This document shows positions 3,766-13,034 of a stretch of 64,000 nt of DNA, one piece after another. This DNA is from Candidatus Spongiisociaceae bacterium. Its GTDB lineage: Bacteria > Actinomycetota > Acidimicrobiia > Spongiisociales > Spongiisociaceae. A program made the translations under genes and the position numbers. Each line of letters opens with the position of its first letter. The stretch's first letter is position 1. A model generated the notes under the pieces. That model saw nothing but the letters and a program-made list of their open reading frames with translations. It searched no databases and was not told the DNA's origin. The stretch spans positions 320,001-384,000 of the forward strand of contig OZ241841.1 in assembly GCA_965202665.1 (NCBI GenBank). Reading direction: 5' to 3'.

Positions 3766-6561
3766 TCAAACGACGATGTTCAGCAAATGGGGCAGCCGGT
3801 ACACCACTCGGCGGATTTCGGACCCGCCCAGGGAACGCTGGATGTTGGCGGAGCCCGCCACCAGGGCCATGGCTTCCTCCCTGGTGATTCCCACCGGAGC
3901 CGGGAAGCGGTCCCGCACTTTGCCGTTGACCTGCACCACCAGGGTCACCTGTTCGTCGGCGGCCGCCTCCGGGTCGGATTCCGGCCACGGCTGCAGGTGG
4001 ATGCTTTGCCGATGTCCCAGCCGATGCCAGGCTTCTTCAGTTACATGGGGGGCGATGGGGGCGGCCAGCAAAAGCAAAATCTCCAAAGCTTCCCGCCATA
4101 TCCCTTCGGAAACATCGCGGGCGGCGCGGACTTTGAACAGGGCGTTGCGCAACACCATCAGTTCGGCCACGGCCGTGTTCCAATGCAGGTTTTCCATGTC
4201 GCCGCCCACCCGTTCGATGGCCTGATGGGCCCGGCGCCGCAGTTCCTTCTCCGCGTCGGGAGAAACTTCCCCGGGCCGGTAGCCGGTTTCGCCCAGCCGC
4301 CACAGGTCGGTGATGAACCGGTGCGCCCCCCGGATGCCCCGGCTGTTCCAAGGGCCGCCTTTCTCCCATTCGAAGGCGAACATCAGGTAGGTGCGCACCG
4401 TGTCCGCCCCGTATTCCCCCACCAGCTCGTCCGGGTTGACCACGTTGCCTTTCGATTTGGACATCCGTTGCACGTCCAACCTTTCCCGCAGTTGCAAGAG
4501 GGCGTTGTCGCCCGGTATCCCGGGGATGTCCACTACGGCGTCCGCCGGGACCGCCACTTCCATTTCCGCCGGATGGGCTTCCCCGTCCCGGGCCCCGGCC
4601 CCGGCGAAGGGGCGCACCCACAGTATTTTTTCACTGCGGCGGATCACTTCGCCCGCCACCTCCCCGTTCTTTGGCTCACCGTTCTGAGGCCGGGCGGGCT
4701 CTTCCACTACCCGCACCCGGCGGGCCGTCGCCCGACCCCCCTCCCCCCCCGGTTTTAGTTCTACGACTACCAGGTCTCCGGACCGTTCTTCTCCCAGCAC
4801 TTGCCCCTGGTTGCGGAGCATCAACATCGGTTCGTCCAACAGCCCCGCCGGGTCCCGCCCCCGGGCCCGCATGGCTTCCATAGTGGAGTCGAAAATTCCC
4901 ATGTCACGCAGGGCTTTGTTGAAAAACCGGGTGTAGAGCAGGTGCATCACGGCGTGTTCCGCCCCGCCGGTGTAGAGGTCGACGGGCAGCCAGTAGGCGG
5001 CCTCTTCCGGATCGAACGGCCCCTGTTCGTAACGGGGGCTCAGGTAGCGCAGGTGGTACCAGGAGGAGCACATGAAAGTGTCCATGGTGTCGGTTTCCCG
5101 GGCGGCGGGGCTTCCGTCGGGGGCTGCGGCGCGCCGGAAACCGTCGTGTTCCAGGAGCGGACTGCGGCCGGTGGGTTTGAAATCCACATCGGCGGGGAGT
5201 TCCACCGGCAGCTGGCCGTCGGGGACGGGCATCGCCCGGCCGTCCTCTCCGTAGAGGATGGGGATGGGGCATCCCCAGTAGCGCTGGCGGCTGATCAGCC
5301 AGTCCCGCAAGCGGTATTGGACTTCCCGCCGCCCGTGGTTGTTTTCCTCCAGCCAGTCCATCATCGCCCGCTTGGAGTCCTCCATGTTTTTGCCGTCCAG
5401 GAAACCGGAGTTGATGGAGGGGCCGTCCCCCAGGTAGGCCCCGCCCGCGAAGTCGGCGGGGGGCTGGACGGTACGCAGGATGGGCAGGCCGTAACGTTCG
5501 GCGAACTCCCAGTCCCGTTCGTCTTCCCCGGGCACGGCCATGATGGCCCCGGAGCCGTAACTCATCAGCACGTAGTCGGCCACCCACACCGGAATGCGCT
5601 CCCCGTTGACCGGGTTGACGGCGAATCCGCCGGTGTCCACCCCGGTTTTTTCCTTGCCCAGGTCGGTGCGTTCCATCTCCGTCCGGGCGGCGGCCGCCTC
5701 CCGGTAGTCGGCCACCGCCCTGCTCTGCCCTTCGGAGGTGAGATCCTCCACCAGCGGATGTTCGGGGGCCAGCACCATAAAAGTGGCTCCGAACAGGGTG
5801 TCGGGCCGGGTGGTGAAAACTTCGATGGCCCGGTCGGGGTCGGCTTCGCCTTGGACGACCAACGGGAAGGCCACCCGGGCTCCTTCGGAACGGCCGATCC
5901 AGTTGGTCTGCATGGCCACCACCGGGTCCGGCCAGTCGATGCCGTCGTATTGCAGCAGCTCCTCGGCGTAGCGGGTGATGCGGTAGAACCATTGTTCCAT
6001 CATCTTCTGCACCACCGGCTGGCCGGTGCGTTCGTCCCGGCCGTTGATGACCTGTTCGTTGGCCAGCACGGTCTGCATGCTGGGCGACCAGTTGACCAGC
6101 GCCTCCCCCCGGTAGGCCAAGCCCGCCTGGTAGAGGCGGGAGAAGAACCATTCCGACCAGCGGTAGTACTCGGGGGTGCAGGACACCGCCTCCCGCCGCC
6201 AGTCGATCATGGTCCCCATGGAACGCAACTGGCCCCGCATCCGTTCGATGTTGGCGTAGGTCCATTCCCAGGGATGGATGTTGGCTTGGATGGCTGCGTT
6301 TTCAGCGGGGAGGCCGAAGGCGTCGAACCCCATCGGGAACAGCACGTTGAAGCCCCGCATGCGCATGTAACGGGCGCGGGCGTCGGAGGGGGTCATGGCG
6401 TACCAGTGGCCGATGTGCAGGTCGCCGCTGGGGTAGGGCAACATGGTCAGGGCGTAGTGCTTGGGGCGCGACCAGTCCACATCGGAGTGGTATATGCCGG
6501 CTTCTTCCCAATGCCGTTGCCATTTTGTTTCCACGGCGCGATGGTCGTAGCGTTGCGTCAC
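3766..6561 (-). CDS. leuS: Leucine--tRNA ligase
   Basis: PYPSGDLHIGH, FTTRPDT editing domain, DWLISRQRYWG, RMSKSKGN, VVQVNGKVR; GTG at 6561 chosen because TAACAT lies 7 nt upstream (leaderless). Confidence 0.96.
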   Translation of the reverse strand: MTQRYDHRAVETKWQRHWEEAGIYHSDVDWSRPKHYALTMLPYPSGDLHIGHWYAMTPSDARARYMRMRGFNVLFPMGFDAFGLPAENAAIQANIHPWEWTYANIERMRGQLRSMGTMIDWRREAVSCTPEYYRWSEWFFSRLYQAGLAYRGEALVNWSPSMQTVLANEQVINGRDERTGQPVVQKMMEQWFYRITRYAEELLQYDGIDWPDPVVAMQTNWIGRSEGARVAFPLVVQGEADPDRAIEVFTTRPDTLFGATFMVLAPEHPLVEDLTSEGQSRAVADYREAAAARTEMERTDLGKEKTGVDTGGFAVNPVNGERIPVWVADYVLMSYGSGAIMAVPGEDERDWEFAERYGLPILRTVQPPADFAGGAYLGDGPSINSGFLDGKNMEDSKRAMMDWLEENNHGRREVQYRLRDWLISRQRYWGCPIPILYGEDGRAMPVPDGQLPVELPADVDFKPTGRSPLLEHDGFRRAAAPDGSPAARETDTMDTFMCSSWYHLRYLSPRYEQGPFDPEEAAYWLPVDLYTGGAEHAVMHLLYTRFFNKALRDMGIFDSTMEAMRARGRDPAGLLDEPMLMLRNQGQVLGEERSGDLVVVELKPGGEGGRATARRVRVVEEPARPQNGEPKNGEVAGEVIRRSEKILWVRPFAGAGARDGEAHPAEMEVAVPADAVVDIPGIPGDNALLQLRERLDVQRMSKSKGNVVNPDELVGEYGADTVRTYLMFAFEWEKGGPWNSRGIRGAHRFITDLWRLGETGYRPGEVSPDAEKELRRRAHQAIERVGGDMENLHWNTAVAELMVLRNALFKVRAARDVSEGIWREALEILLLLAAPIAPHVTEEAWHRLGHRQSIHLQPWPESDPEAAADEQVTLVVQVNGKVRDRFPAPVGITREEAMALVAGSANIQRSLGGSEIRRVVYRLPHLLNIVV

Positions 6562-6661
6562 GCCGGTAATGTTACCCCGTCCCGTGATTTGTCCCGCCGC
6601 CGCGCAAAACCGGTAAATTCCAGGCAAACGGAGAGCAAACGTCTATATTTCTGCTGACCCG

Positions 6662-7441
6662 ATGAATTCTATGAACCCTAAACCGCTGATAGCCCTCACC
6701 ACCACCGTGCGGGTGGCCGACACTTATCTGGGCCCGAAGACCCGGTTGCACGGCCTGGGGCTGTACTACACGGAGGCGGTGCGGCGCGCCGGGGCGGCGA
6801 TTGTGGCGCTGGCGGAAATGGACCCGGAGGACGCGCCGTTGCTGCTGACCGGGGCGGACGGGTTGCTGGTGACCGGCGGGCACGACATTGATCCGGTGTT
6901 ATACGGTCAGGATAACACGGCCAGCGTGGATCTGGACCGAGCCGACGACGACCGCGACTTGGCCCTGGTGTTGGAGGCTCGGCGGCGGCGCATTCCGGTG
7001 CTGGCCATCTGCCGGGGAATCCAGGTTCTGAACGTGGCCCTGGGAGGGACCCTGCACCAGCATATTCTGTCCGACGACGACCCGGACCATCCGGCGATGG
7101 CCGACTCGGCGGAGATACGAAACGCCCACCGGCATAGGGTCAAGTTTGAACCGGACAGCCGCTTGGCCGATATCTATCAAAACGGGGAACGCCAGGTGAA
7201 TTCCCTGCACCATCAGGCCATTGACCGGTTGGGACGCGGCCTGCGGGTGGTGGGGAAAACCACCGGGGGGCACATTGAGGCGGTGGAAAGCTCTGATACG
7301 GAATGGCGGGCTCTGGCCGTGCAATGGCACCCGGAAATGCTGGACGACCCCGAAGAACAGGCCCTGTTCGAAGCCTTCGCTCTAGACGCCCGCGACTTCC
7401 GCCGCCGTCGCCGAGGCATGGGCTACCGCACCGACTCTTAG
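6662..7441 (+). CDS. Gamma-glutamyl-gamma-aminobutyrate hydrolase family (peptidase C26, PuuD-like)
   Basis: LLVTGGHDIDP, LAICRGIQVLNVALGGTL, VNSLHHQAI, AVQWHPE. Confidence 0.9.
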   Translation: MNSMNPKPLIALTTTVRVADTYLGPKTRLHGLGLYYTEAVRRAGAAIVALAEMDPEDAPLLLTGADGLLVTGGHDIDPVLYGQDNTASVDLDRADDDRDLALVLEARRRRIPVLAICRGIQVLNVALGGTLHQHILSDDDPDHPAMADSAEIRNAHRHRVKFEPDSRLADIYQNGERQVNSLHHQAIDRLGRGLRVVGKTTGGHIEAVESSDTEWRALAVQWHPEMLDDPEEQALFEAFALDARDFRRRRRGMGYRTDS

Positions 7442-7468
7442 TCCCAACCCCAGGTTCCCAGGCCGGTC

Positions 7469-8710
7469 TCAACCAGGCCCGGCGCGAACAGGCGGCCCGG
7501 GCCGGGGCCGGGTTTTCCATCGGCCGTCTTGCTGGAAAAGTTCCAGGTTGTCGTCCTGCAGTTGGCGGTGGTGTGACCCGCAGAGGGAGGCCAAGTTGTC
7601 GATGTCGGTGGGGCCGCCGTCGTACCAGTCCCAAATATGGTGCAACTGGGTCTGGTGGGTGGAAATGTCACATCGGACGCATCCCCCGTCCCGCACCGCG
7701 GCCGCCATCCGCTGAGCGGCGTTGCCCAGACGTTGTTTGCGCCCCAGCCACAGCACCCGTCCTTTCCCCCCGAAGATAATCCCACTCAGCGAAGTATCAG
7801 GCGAGAGACGTCCCAGAACGGAAGGCGGCACCGGCCCGCTCCCCAAAACCTCACACCGCCCCCCTGGACGGGAGCCGTCCAAAACCCCAATGTCGGCCAC
7901 CACCACCAGCTGAGTAGAAGGCTTGCCCGTTTGAGCCCCCGCCTCGGAAAGGGGTTGAAAAGTTTCAGAATCGCGGCCGGTCAACAGCTCAAACAGGGCG
8001 TCCGCCCGCCGTTGCTCGTTGGAACGAAACTCATCCGGGGAAACTCCGCGGCCGGAATCATCCCGTCGCAACCGATCTACGCCCAAGTCCAAAGCCTGCC
8101 GGACCTGCCCAAAAGCAATCCGGTCCAACTCAGCGTGCAACACCCCCATATCCTTAGCCGGGTCCCAAAACATATAAGCCTTACGCCGCCCACGTTGCCG
8201 CCGCAAAGACTCTTCTTCCCGGTCCCGGCTGTTAGCGGAAGTCCACTCCCGGGCCTTCTTGCGGAACCCATCCGGATTGGAAGCAACCGCCTCCCCCAAC
8301 AACCCCGCGTCCTGATCCACCCGCCGCGCACCGCACTCTCGGGCGGCGCCGGTCAAGGCGGAGGCGTGCTCCAAAGTGATTTCCCCCGCCGCCAACTTGG
8401 CCCGCGTGTTGGGCATCTCCGCCAACCCCTCCGACACTTTGGTGATGTATTTGGCCTGGTGGGAAGTCATCCCCATCTGGTCTTGCATAATCTCAGCCGC
8501 CTCCCGCTTCCCCTCCTCCCGGGACAGACGCAACGCGATAGCGGTCTCCAAGCCGGCCAAACGGGCCTTGGCCCGCTTCACCGCCCCCGCCACCTCCTCC
8601 AACTCAGCCCGAGACCCAGCACCAGCGGCCTCCTCCCCCAGGATGCCCAACCCGGCCCCGATCTGCTCATCAGCCGCCCGAACCCGCTCGGAATTAGCAA
8701 CACGTTTCAT
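7469..8710 (-). CDS. DUF222 / 13E12-like protein with C-terminal HNH endonuclease
   Basis: QRRADAL motif; RDGGCVRC...LHHIWDWYDGGPTDIDNLASLCGSHH HNH; start placed at ATG 8710, 7 nt after TACGTT (track ORF to 8830 reads through a repeat unit). Confidence 0.88.
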   Translation of the reverse strand: MKRVANSERVRAADEQIGAGLGILGEEAAGAGSRAELEEVAGAVKRAKARLAGLETAIALRLSREEGKREAAEIMQDQMGMTSHQAKYITKVSEGLAEMPNTRAKLAAGEITLEHASALTGAARECGARRVDQDAGLLGEAVASNPDGFRKKAREWTSANSRDREEESLRRQRGRRKAYMFWDPAKDMGVLHAELDRIAFGQVRQALDLGVDRLRRDDSGRGVSPDEFRSNEQRRADALFELLTGRDSETFQPLSEAGAQTGKPSTQLVVVADIGVLDGSRPGGRCEVLGSGPVPPSVLGRLSPDTSLSGIIFGGKGRVLWLGRKQRLGNAAQRMAAAVRDGGCVRCDISTHQTQLHHIWDWYDGGPTDIDNLASLCGSHHRQLQDDNLELFQQDGRWKTRPRPGPPVRAGPG

Positions 8711-9075
8711 ACTTTCCAACGTAACCGGAGGCTGTGACAAATTCCCCCCACTCGTCGCAACGCCCGCGTCGACGCGCTCAGCCGCCTGCGGCAACCGCCC
8801 GGAATTAGCAATGTGCTTCATACCCCCCACGTAACCGGAGGGTGTGACAAATCCTCCCCGCCCATAGCAACACCCACGCCGACGCGCTCAGCAACCTGCG
8901 GCAACCGCCCAGAATCGGATATACGCTTCATACCCCCCAACGTAATAGAGGGGTGTGACAAATTCTCCCCACCCGAAGTTACGCCCGCCTTGGCGCGCTC
9001 AGCGACCTGCGGCAACCGCCCGGAATTAGCTATGTGCTTCATACTCCCTAACGTAATAGGGGGGTGTGACAAATT
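8690..9075 (-). repeat. Tandem 110-111 bp repeat (about 3.5 units); each unit is a promoter plus ATG plus about 27 codons
   Basis: Plus-strand GTGACAAAT at 8734, 8844, 8955, 9066; CCTGCGGCAACCGCCC in three units; minus-strand ATGs at 8710, 8821, 8931, 9042. Confidence 0.93.
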
Positions 9076-9103
9076 CGTTTGGGGGAGGCGAGCATCCTCC
9101 AAA

Positions 9104-11861
9104 TCAAGTGGGAATTGCGGTCTGGGTGGGACCTTGGGCGCGGCGGGCCTCTTGGGATATGCTTTCCCAGGCGGTGACCAAGCTGTTGTAGGCCACGGCG
9201 TCCTCGGTGGCACCCTCGGAGTCCGCCACCTGGTAGAGCAGATAGGCAAGATGGCGGGCTTGGTCGCTCATCCCGCCCCCCACCTTGGCTAACAACTCCC
9301 CAGCCTTGCCTTCGGATTTTTCCATTCGGGCGATGAGGTGCTGGGTAATCTCCCAAACGGTCAATCTTCGGTCGGTCCTAGGATCCCACTCTGGGTCCAA
9401 CTCGTCCCGGCGCAACAACCGAACCTTGCCGCCCTTGGACTCCACAACCCCCGCATCCTCCACCCCCTCCACCGCCACCCCCATCGCCTTCGCCAAAACC
9501 TCAGCATCCCCGAACGATCCCAATTCGAATCCGTATTGGCGATACCAGGTAAGAGCAAACCGACTGTCGGAATCCAATTCAGACTCTTCCGCCGACAAAA
9601 TCTCCTCCAATTTTTCGTTGATGAGACCCAACGCCGTACGAACCGACATCGTGGACCCATCCGCCTCCACCACCCGGGCATAGCGGGAGAAAATACGCAT
9701 TCCCGGCCCGATAGCCGACTGAGCCATATCCACCGGCGGAATAGCCTGCTCCTGAAGTAACTCTATGGCCTCCGGCATCTCATCCCGCAAGGCGGCTATA
9801 AACCCACCCCTCGTTTCTAACTGAGCATTATCAGAACGAGGACGGCAAACCAACACCACCGAAGAGGCCAACGCTGCCGTACCTTGTGAAATCATTCGGC
9901 CAGTTGTTTCAGTATGAATGGGCCAAGTGGCGGTTATCTGTAAACCAGCATCTACCAATCCTTGAAGGAAAGTTTCCCAACCAGTAGAAGTGATTTTTCC
10001 GTTCTTCTTTTCTTGTTGCTTAAATGCGTAAAAAATGGTAGCAGGAAACTTCCGGTTTTGAGCGAGGGCTATTCCCTTCATTACGTTTTTCATACCCTCC
10101 TCAAAATTTTTTTGAGCAATTGTCATTGAACCTACCCTCCATGGACTAGCTACCAATTCATCGAGTTTAGGGGTTAATAAAGTAGAGCATTCATCTGGCC
10201 ACAAATCAAACAAATTATGACGTAACCATACATAGAAAAAATCTGAAATATCTGCATATTGAATGTTGTCATAGTAAGGAGGATCGGTGCAAATTATTGG
10301 TGATACTATCTCCTCTAATCTAGTTTTTGATTCGCGTTGTTTAATATCAGATAGGACAGTATCTTGGATTAAAGGCCAATCTTTAGATGAAAAAGATAGT
10401 AGGACTCCATCAACCATTCCTTTCCAGGAACCTGAAGAATTGCTTAACGGATTGGCTTCCGCATAATCCCATATCATAGGAATAGCTTGCCGACCAAATA
10501 AACCAACAGGACATTCTGAGCTTGGCCTCCATCGAACTAATGAATTATTTGCTTCCGCTAACTTATCAAAAGCAAAAGATAAGTATGTAACAACTGCATC
10601 CGCATAAGCTACAGAACCAGCCCCTCCATCTCGTAAACGTATTCCATCATTGGCTAAGCCTGCTTGCTCAGAATCTGATTTTATAGTATTCCATACTTCC
10701 AACAAAAGAGTAGACAATGTACCAAGTGATATTAATTGTCGAGTAGTAAAGAGATCACTCCATTTTGTCATTCCATATAAAGAAACGCTGTCGGTAGCCT
10801 TACCCAATAAATTCCCTTTAGGAATGAAGTTAGGTTCTGGGAGATTTGGCAACACAGTAGGATTAAAATACATCCTACCAGACTCACCTTCCACAGCAAC
10901 CGCAATCATTGTTTCACTCATCAATCCTTGTTGACTTTGATACTGTATATATTTGGAACTAACTGACGCCCCAGTAGCAATACAAATACCACCTCCTCTA
11001 GCGATTGTCCTCTTTATAGGAGTACCACCCTCCCTAATATTATATCTCACAGTGTGCGTTGAACGATCAACAATCGGTTCTACCCAAATCAAAGGCTTGC
11101 CCTCTTTCTTACGTAATATCCAATTACTTACTAGTGGAATATGACCACTCCAAGATGGATCAGGAGATTTAACGGAACGAGCCCAAATCCATGCTATTAC
11201 CGTTGAATCCTCCACCCTTGGATATATATAACCGATATGTTCCTGTGCTCCCCTATGAATTAAGTCTCCATAGAACTTGATATCCTCCGCTAAACCTTGA
11301 GCTCTATTCCATGTTTTGAGGGTAGTAACATCCTTAGATGCAGGATTAACCGGTGGATAATTTTTAAACCGGGGCGGAATTTCTACCATAGCCTTGGAAA
11401 TTAACACTGCTACTGGATTTAAATCGCCTCCAAACGATGGTAAACCCAAACGCTGGGCCTCCAGTGGAATAATTCCTCTCCCGCAAAAGGGGTCTAAAAC
11501 CCTTACCCCCCCCCCCGTTTATAGAAGGCTCTATCTCCCTCCGGGCCTCGTCCAATACTTGAGGATTGTTAGAATTCTCTCGCGTCAACAACCTTTCCAA
11601 AATACTAAACAGCCGCTTGCGCTCCAGTGTTCTATCCTCCTCTGTAGGAAACCTATCAGGATCAGCAAGGGGATCATCCACTAAGGATGCCCACAAAACC
11701 GCCCGTGCGGCAGGCAATGGACGACGCGCCCACCACCTATGAAGATTAGAAGGATGACCCATCTTGACATTTATATCCCGCACAGACGCTTCATTTATGG
11801 CCTGGAGGGGGAGGGCCACCTCTATTAGTTTGGGGCCGCGGGGGAGGACTACGTCGGCCAT
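9104..11861 (-). pseudogene. DUF1156 adenine-specific DNA methyltransferase, frameshifted at a G11 tract (phase-variable gene, pseudogene or sequencing error)
   Basis: 5' frame KLIEVALPL...GHPSNLHRWWARRPLPAARAVLWASLV; after the tract the other frame reads VRVLDPFCGRGIIPLEAQRLG (motif I) into ORF 9104-11449 with TDPPYYDN (motif IV); G10 restores a 918-aa ORF. Confidence 0.88.
11506..11516 (-). repeat. G11 homopolymer at the methyltransferase frameshift
   Basis: Plus strand ccttaCCCCCCCCCCCgttt. Confidence 0.95.
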
Positions 11862-11867
11862 TAGGGG

Positions 11868-11944
11868 TGGTGGAGCTGACGGGATTTGAACCCGTGGCCT
11901 CTTGCATGCCATGCAAGCGCTCTGCCGACCTGAGCTACAGCCCC
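11868..11944 (-). tRNA. tRNA-Ala (GGC)
   Basis: GGGGCTGTAGCTCAGGTCGGCAGAGCGCTTGCATGGCATGCAAGAGGCCACGGGTTCAAATCCCGTCAGCTCCACCA; cloverleaf, G3-U70, anticodon GGC, encoded CCA. Confidence 0.97.
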
Positions 11945-11958
11945 TTTGATTGGTTCCA

Positions 11959-12405
11959 TCATAGTGGGGATTTTACATTCCGCAAACCATCCTCCAAATC
12001 CGCCAAATTCCCGGCGGGGGCGGGAGGCGGCGTCCACTCCACGCGGGGGGCGTCCCCCCACAGGCGCTCCAGGGCGTAGAATTCACGGGCTTGCTGGGAG
12101 AACAGGTGCACCACCAGGTCGCCGTAGTCCATCAGCAGCCAGTCGCCCTCCTCCCGGCCTTCGATGCGCACCGGCTCCCGGTGGTGGCCTTTCAGCCGCT
12201 CCTCCACCTCTTCGGCCATAGTGCGGATCTGCCGTTTGGACGAACCGGTGGCGATCACGAACACGTCCGCCACCCGCAACAGATCCCCCACCCACAGAAT
12301 CGCCACCTCCCTCCCCTGTTTGCCGTCGATCGCGTCCGCGGACGCCCGGGCCAAATCCGCCGAAGACAGTTCCGCAATCGTAACGGCCCGTTCGGTGATA
12401 TTCAC
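11959..12405 (-). CDS. rsfS: Ribosome silencing factor RsfS
   Basis: DVFVIATGSSKRQI, WLLMDYGDLVVHLF...REFYALERLWGDAP; follows nadD. Confidence 0.94.
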   Translation of the reverse strand: MNITERAVTIAELSSADLARASADAIDGKQGREVAILWVGDLLRVADVFVIATGSSKRQIRTMAEEVEERLKGHHREPVRIEGREEGDWLLMDYGDLVVHLFSQQAREFYALERLWGDAPRVEWTPPPAPAGNLADLEDGLRNVKSPL

Positions 12406-13034
12406 CCCCCTTGGCTGGCAACGGCGTTCATCAACCCCACTTTAGCATCCCCCGCCCCGTATCCGTACAACCCGTGCACCAGGATGTACGCCCACACCGG
12501 TTGGGGAAGCAGATAGTGGATGTTCCCCCTCCGCTCCGCCTTGGCCCGGATTTCGGAGCCGGACACGGGAAACTCCGGCATATCCAGCCATTCCGCCCGA
12601 CCGCCCAGGGCCTCATCCACCGCCGCCCGCTCCTCCCCGGGACGGGGAACCACCGCCACCCGGGCCAAGCCCATCACCTCCCCCGCCCGATGCCAGGTGG
12701 GAAGCCCGCGGGCGGCGTCCGCCCCCAGAATCAAAACCGGTTCGGCGTCCCCCCGTTCCAGCAACGTGTCAATCGTGTAGGTGGGGCCGGGGCGGCGCAC
12801 CTCCCGGTCGTCCACTTCCGCAACATCCCAGTCGGCGACGGCGGCCAACGTCATCCCCAGGCGATGTTCGGCGGAGGCGACCGTCTCCCCCGTTTTCTGC
12901 CAGGGCGAGCCGGCGGGAACGAAAACCACCCGCTCCAAACCCAGTTGCCTGTATGCGGCTTCGGCGATCAGCACATGGATGATGTGGGGAGGATCGAACG
13001 TCCCTCCGAAAATCCCGACCGGCCCGCCGTCCAT
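12402..13034 (-). CDS. nadD: Nicotinate-nucleotide adenylyltransferase
   Basis: GIFGGTFDPPHIIH, TYTIDTL, LILGAD, VSGSEIR. Confidence 0.94.
   Translation of the reverse strand: MDGGPVGIFGGTFDPPHIIHVLIAEAAYRQLGLERVVFVPAGSPWQKTGETVASAEHRLGMTLAAVADWDVAEVDDREVRRPGPTYTIDTLLERGDAEPVLILGADAARGLPTWHRAGEVMGLARVAVVPRPGEERAAVDEALGGRAEWLDMPEFPVSGSEIRAKAERRGNIHYLLPQPVWAYILVHGLYGYGAGDAKVGLMNAVASQGG

Follow-up and report, generated by a model that had tools for sequence, protein, structure and literature searches.

Why does a nuclease gene carry several copies of a promoter and start codon in front of its own? The question arises in a 64,000-nt stretch of DNA (the window), where the original prediction had placed four stacked copies of a DNA-damage-type promoter plus start codon ahead of a DUF222-HNH gene. 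The sequence TTTGTCAC occurs there on the minus strand with four starts, at 9073, 8962, 8851, and 8741, separated by steps of 111, 111, and 110 nt. Four boxes of the form TGTCAC-N10-TA-N3-T/G, each located 28–29 nt 5′ of an ATG (9042, 8931, 8821, and 8710, minus strand), precede the gene, which extends from 8710 to 7469. TRF describes the repeat as 3.5 copies of a 111-nt period with 80% matches and a score of 471, by a wide margin the top-scoring array of the window. The stacking of promoter and start copies before a DUF222-HNH gene is therefore borne out by the coordinates, TRF, and Pfam. The number four holds for the boxes and ATGs, but not for the composition of the array, which is made of three extra units and the gene's own promoter and start. 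The features of the locus are the following:

8963..9073, minus strand: extra unit 1, 111 nt, with a PafBC-type box at 9071–9050 and ATG1 at 9042, followed by codons derived from the gene 5′ end
8852..8962, minus strand: extra unit 2, 111 nt, with a box at 8960–8939 and ATG2 at 8931
8742..8851, minus strand: extra unit 3, 110 nt in the window, with a box at 8849–8828, a degenerate −10 TACGTG, and ATG3 at 8821, in the gene frame (450 aa)
8718..8739, minus strand: PafBC-type box of the gene itself, TGTCAC-N10-TACGTT, located 29 nt 5′ of ATG4 (8710)
8823..8828, minus strand: G run, G6 in the window and G7 in other assemblies (a contig of run X1, database protein P0001)
8818..9042, minus strand: upstream ORF present in the G6 allele, of 74 aa (from ATG1) or 37 aa (from ATG2), RTGA-coupled to ATG3
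7469..8710, minus strand: DUF222-HNH (13E12-family) gene, 413 aa, with DUF222 at aa 45–341 and HNH at aa 344–384; its core is confidently modelled
9104..11860, minus strand: orphan HmaB-like DUF1156 adenine methylase gene, frameshift-split at a G11 run (11516–11506); same neighbor at the orthologous site of the sister species G001
11868..11944, minus strand: tRNA-Ala(GGC), also at the G001 orthologous site

Four sequencing runs were compared at the locus. As a check on read support for the repeat, a contig of run X2, which may be the source sample itself, spans positions 8582–9400 with zero differences or gaps. This gap-free contig and the occurrence of the same units in proteins of other assemblies rule out an assembly artefact. 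The units had been described as starts of about 27 codons resembling the N-terminus of the gene. They are 76–88% identical among themselves and just 54–65% identical to gene 5′ ends, and they do not form separate ORFs. A 111-nt unit corresponds to 37 codons in frame with the DUF222-HNH gene, a point missed in the original prediction, and the units read in frame into one another and into the gene, save across the 110-nt step. This step is a strain polymorphism of the G run: a contig of run X1 covering 8780–9035 has one extra C behind 8822 (G7), and both X2 and a 151-nt piece of X8 at depth 2 carry the window allele (G6). In the G7 allele, all four ATGs share a single frame of 524 aa, matching the database protein P0001. 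In the G6 allele, the 74-aa upstream ORF ends at a TGA overlapping ATG3 in an ATGA stop-start. The short peptides that had been envisaged next to the nuclease thus have counterparts in the ORFs of 74 and 37 aa, but in the G6 allele only. Seven of the eight junctions characterized at the DNA level in this genome (G000) and in G001 are a multiple of three and stop-free; the eighth is the G6/G7 site. Once a single unit is 3n long, its tandem copies obtain the frame for free.

The boxes match a motif found throughout the 2.77-Mb genome, where TGTCAC-N10-TA-N3-T occurs 37 times, against 0–5 times with other spacers. Outside DUF222 genes, there are 25 occurrences versus 0–4 at spacers of 6–9 and 11–14. 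The TGTCGC variant behaves similarly (23 at spacer 10 vs. 3–9 at other spacers), and the contrast is weaker for TGTCGG (25 vs. 3–21). The motif precedes two recA genes, ruvC, recR, dnaG, an Lhr-type helicase gene, and SSB, that is, all seven repair-type genes tested, which were chosen by eye from the list of motif hits. A pafBC pair is encoded by adjacent WYL-WCX and HTH_PafC-WYL-WCX genes. The motif before repair genes and pafBC had both been proposed as checks, and both are present. By the enrichment at spacer 10, the repair-gene context, and the presence of pafBC, the motif of the array boxes is the PafBC-type motif of the genome, which bears out the claim of putative PafBC-type promoters. 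Three of the four array boxes fully match TGTC(G/A)(G/C)-N10-TA-N3-T; the third box ends in TACGTG and has lost the conserved final T of the −10. A box-like sequence is also found about 29 nt 5′ of the start in all eight full paralogs. In mycobacteria, the PafBC (RecA-NDp) promoter consensus is tGTCgg(N10)tA(N3)T with a strict GTC (PMC8635444), and TGTCAC is a tolerated variant in Mycobacterium tuberculosis (PMC8151990). The promoters described here share with them the bipartite box, the N10 spacer, the invariant GTC, the position before recA, ruvC, recR, and dnaG, and the pafBC pair. They differ in that TGTC(A/G)C dominates and in that the box is tandemly repeated with a start codon within an ORF. 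The two recA genes, located at G000:C1:133665 and 1277230, each have their own TGTCAC box.

At 20 of 61 boxes (9 of the 48 not associated with DUF222 genes), the distance from the box start to an ATG is 29 nt, and no offset beyond 28–30 is represented by more than three boxes. As the published position of the box is −23 to −28 (PMC8635444 or PMC8151990), this distance fits leaderless starts. The putative leaderless starts of the original prediction fit this geometry and the lack of a Shine-Dalgarno (SD) sequence at a spacing of at least 4 nt. At this spacing, each of the 12 array starts pairs with the 16S 3′ end at −1.8 to −3.9 kcal/mol, compared with −8.5 to −9.7 kcal/mol for 20 starts of another DUF222 clade in G001. 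Three other-clade starts in G000 reach just −4.0, and at several array starts, a G-rich stretch gives strong pairing (−7 to −11), too near the ATG at 1–3 nt. In the absence of a properly spaced SD at the array starts, upstream leaderless transcripts would need frame continuity to yield the nuclease. Among the other-clade copies of G001, 6 of 14 have an upstream promoter stub, and all six stubs are out of frame or stopped. That copies without an SD keep the frame whereas copies with an SD need not is suggestive, although the contrast is not clean. According to PMC4633059, mycobacterial leaderless small ORFs show an over-representation of the coupled (RTGA) arrangement downstream. The predicted SD-less ATG start and the RTGA-coupled upstream ORF of the G6 allele, whose sequence is free to vary, resemble this arrangement. 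Here, however, the upstream ORF is a copy of the 5′ end of the gene itself, and the other allele represents an in-frame fusion.

The gene following the array belongs to a multicopy family. Its DUF222 (E 7e-13) and HNH (E 4e-7) domains both score over the Pfam cut-off, and the HNH residues are conserved across 111 homologs. Eight full DUF222-HNH copies are dispersed in G000 and 15 are present in G001. No transposase domain was detected, Pfam giving DUF222 and HNH only and NCBIfam a single HNH match below its cut-off. Foldseek returned no match at E 0.001 or better, and the best VIA scores were Z 7.4 to a KorB/ParB helix-turn-helix (residues 158–272) and Z 6.7 to the HNH of IscB, all below 8. 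The nuclease is without a PADLOC match. In M. tuberculosis, the 13E12/REP13E12 family is described as damage-induced and recombinogenic, its loci being inversion and gene-conversion hotspots (PMC13157036; PMC13061034; see also PMC10589994). The family described here resembles 13E12/REP13E12 by the association of DUF222 and HNH, the eight dispersed copies, the damage-type box at each of them, and the location of several G001 copies at synteny breaks with respect to G000.

Array length varies. The two nearest paralogs, 88–92% identical, also carry arrays, with two and one extra units, respectively. In the sister species G001, an array of units of 153 and 144 nt occupies the orthologous site, both flanks being common; among 60 relatives searched, the array DNA matched G001 only. 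With the gene body as query (120 of 161 proteins listed), 14 of the 15 full-length clusters at least 72% identical carry in-frame units, and these 15 stand apart from the remaining matches listed, which are at most 64% identical. From zero to four extra units occur at the same loci in members of seven clusters (57 sequences). Within six of these clusters, units are present in 37 of 43 full-length members (three fragments were excluded), out-of-frame units being invisible in protein databases, so that the six members without extension could hide some; none of the ten full-length members of the sister cluster P0015 carries any. The gene-proximal units measure 26, 29, 34, 37, or 48 codons, all in frame. 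We estimate the chance of five whole-codon lengths at about (1/3)^5, or 0.004, if they were independent, which kin are not. In P0283, a single sequence, the inner ATG is lost and the 499-aa frame is kept. In-frame stacks are also found independently in four other-clade proteins (P0026, P0031, P0036, and P0058). By contrast with 13E12/REP13E12 and other DUF222 loci outside this genus, where promoter stacking was observed at none of 58 loci (22 have one box), upstream duplicate boxes are found at 5 of the 61 boxes of the genome, every one at DUF222 genes. The 58-locus scan, in which two loci came from the unpublished G106, excluded duplicates, loci with less than 500 nt upstream, and hits whose alignment did not include the N-terminus; it called all ten stacked controls and both single controls correctly. 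Scans of metagenome contigs found nothing. As far as seen in these sequences, stacking is confined to DUF222 genes of this genus, and the restriction of upstream duplicates to DUF222 genes points to the multicopy family or its nuclease as the cause.

We propose, with a probability of roughly 55%, that the array is a VNTR of the gene's PafBC-type box and start, mostly in frame, which likely multiplies the damage-induced output of the nuclease through leaderless read-through mRNAs. This proposal builds on the observed repeat, its frame, its variation between strains, the motif context, and the presence of pafBC. Upon DNA damage, PafBC would activate each intact box and the transcript would begin at the A of the ATG. 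Without a properly spaced SD, an upstream transcript would give the nuclease only with the ribosome staying in frame. Nested isoforms of 413, 450, 487, and 524 aa would result, with a predicted disordered tail whose sequence would hardly be relevant. In the G6 allele, translation would instead terminate and reinitiate at the ATGA overlap. The extra promoters could, however, interfere rather than add. If the mechanism works in this way, the array represents a natural copy-number dial on a damage-induced nuclease, and expression level and N-terminal length would covary between strains. It would also offer a leaderless gene a simple route to gain promoters, by duplicating promoter and start and keeping the frame. 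The parts are known, namely PafBC promoters, a damage-induced and recombinogenic 13E12 family, and leaderless and coupled translation. For an in-frame promoter-plus-start array, we found no report in the titles and abstract openings of the open-access literature. Tandem promoter units are otherwise familiar from the 5′ monomers of rodent L1 elements and the tandem repeats of fungal cyp51A. As in these cases, the promoter units vary in copy number, which would tune output; their units are non-coding, whereas here each unit has a start codon and is predicted to be translated. As the arrays begin at the box and not at the transcript start, an origin by L1-like RNA copying does not fit.

Conservation along the units bears on several alternatives. 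Over 12 copies, two of nine key box positions vary, compared with 8 of 10 in the spacer, 12 of 24 in coding nt 4–27, and 48 of 51 in nt 28–78; gene conversion can also keep the boxes alike. The pN/pS ratio is 0.52 for the units versus a dN/dS of 0.13–0.22 for the genes. For the units, neither of the two better-fitting models rejected omega = 1 (2ΔlnL of about 2.4–2.5; 4.1 in the poorer MG model). Selection against stop codons was discarded, as their absence from the units is not significant in neutral simulation (P 0.23–0.44). The control on DNA indel rates was unusable, since intact genes too gave 31 apparent frameshifting gaps, which are alignment artefacts. By these measures, the units' amino-acid sequence is nearly unconstrained. 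Such near-neutral evolution would be expected if recombination between DUF222 copies had left a 5′ stub of by chance 111 nt, subsequently copied by slippage and gene conversion, the upstream boxes being unselected. The out-of-frame stubs common in the other clade, the gene-conversion hotspots at 13E12 loci reported in PMC13061034, and the faster divergence of the units than of the gene body (0.68–0.76 vs. 0.92–0.98 in several pairs) are in line with this scenario. It accounts poorly for the five unit lengths, every one a whole number of codons, in 14 of 15 clusters, for the frame kept by P0283 despite the loss of its inner ATG, and for boxes that remain intact at the orthologous site of two species whose unit coding parts are barely alignable. 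We consider neutral debris possible but rather unlikely.

A role of the encoded peptide itself appears quite improbable. A basic disordered N-terminal tail, or the free peptides of 37–74 aa of the G6 allele, would regulate, inhibit, or destabilize the nuclease, and the promoters would merely hitchhike. The conserved frame, the first nine codons, which are better conserved than the later ones, and a pN/pS leaning below 1 argue in this direction. Against it, omega = 1 is not rejected, unit lengths span 26 to 51 codons, and the contrast between box and spacer tracks the promoter, not the codons. No fold is predicted either: AlphaFold2 gave the 524-aa form a pLDDT below 50 for residues 1–100, the confident core starting at about residue 109. 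We give very little credence to the possibility that the units act as structured small RNAs or as guides of the HNH nuclease. This idea, which extends the short RNAs of the original prediction, has in its favor that the array adjoins an HNH whose nuclease domain weakly resembles that of IscB. However, no Rfam match was found in the array (in 6500–12500, the tRNA is the only one), the folding energy is similar to that of shuffled sequences (z between −0.33 and 0.22), and no spacer-like unique segments were observed. The IscB profile matches the HNH part only, with 21.8 bits for a cut-off of 175, and the full architecture of an OMEGA (IscB) nuclease is absent.

The origin of the units raises a further alternative, contained in the original prediction, in which every unit was left behind as a 5′ footprint by a different DUF222 paralog, through insertions or replacements that took place separately at a single site. 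Across 23 loci of two genomes, all 20 upstream fragments correspond to the 5′ half of the gene and all seven downstream fragments to its 3′ half, on the same strand. Stubs at some copies are two or three deep, some of them lack the upstream sigma70-type promoter present at the intact copy behind, and units of one array are not mutual closest relatives (bootstrap of just 44–78). These features would suit successive insertions. However, a bootstrap of 100% supports the grouping of gene starts to the exclusion of all six extra units of G000. These six are uniform in length and junction, and 0.44 substitutions per site separate their clade from any gene start, which contradicts the footprints of different paralogs. 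In addition, the site is common to the sister species on both flanks, and the comparison of 15 G001 copies with G000 (flank identity of about 75–85%) revealed neither empty sites nor target duplications. Serial insertion, improbable overall, therefore fails as an account of the units of this array. Their common length and junction and their separate clade indicate descent from a single stub and subsequent shuffling, and one of the units is a chimera of two neighbors. Among the inverted repeats listed, none was terminal.

The polarity of the stubs excludes the decay of whole tandem copies. It is compatible with a broken copy having been repaired by copying a paralog, or with local duplications across one end, and an origin of the first stub by recombination between DUF222 copies thereby gains support. 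For the promoter VNTR that we favor, the first extra unit probably arose from a break close to the 5′ end of one copy, whose repair drew on the promoter and gene of a paralog and left the 5′ stub. Unequal recombination and gene conversion would then have expanded, shrunk, and shuffled the units. In a bolder and tentative extension, DUF222-HNH genes would spread when a copy already in place is cut and a paralog is copied into it, leaving polarized stubs, those at the 5′ end and in frame being recruited as a damage-promoter copy-number dial that raises their own expression. If this were true, stub junctions would map the cut and repair sites of the nuclease, a first handle on 13E12 movement. The strict polarity itself provides a testable lead on the movement or recombination of this long-unexplained family.

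Individual copies show additional arrangements. At L064 in G001, three stacked 5′ pieces are accompanied by a 3′ piece on the downstream side, and about 82 codons are duplicated internally in frame. L058 and G000:C1:2264094–2264881 share the same flank with a DUF222 copy in both species, of different clade and in opposite orientation, which suggests a reused site or an inversion between copies. Other-clade copies (L043–L046 and most of L059–L070) have an AT-rich sigma70-type promoter, TTGAC(A/T)-N17-TAGAAT, 80–90 nt before the PafBC box, and their flank homology ends at its 5′ edge. A remnant box lies 5′ of the sigma70-type promoter of the paralog at L043 (2533014). At L047 (G000:C1:2343444), an element-like box about 25 nt behind the paralog stop leads a short ORF, whose start we take to be RecQ-like.

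In both species, a frameshift at a G11 run (11516–11506, minus strand, in the window; about 7420 in L131) interrupts the HmaB-like methylase gene behind tRNA-Ala, a phase-variable-like configuration. No Hma partners are encoded between the methylase and the nuclease. DUF222-HNH copies at L057, L060, L062, L069, and L044 similarly lie just 3′ of a DUF1156-type methylase gene or beside restriction-modification-like genes. Finally, the matches of many family representatives of 500–820 aa among P0121–P0268 are split in two, which suggests a large insertion separating their DUF222 and HNH parts.
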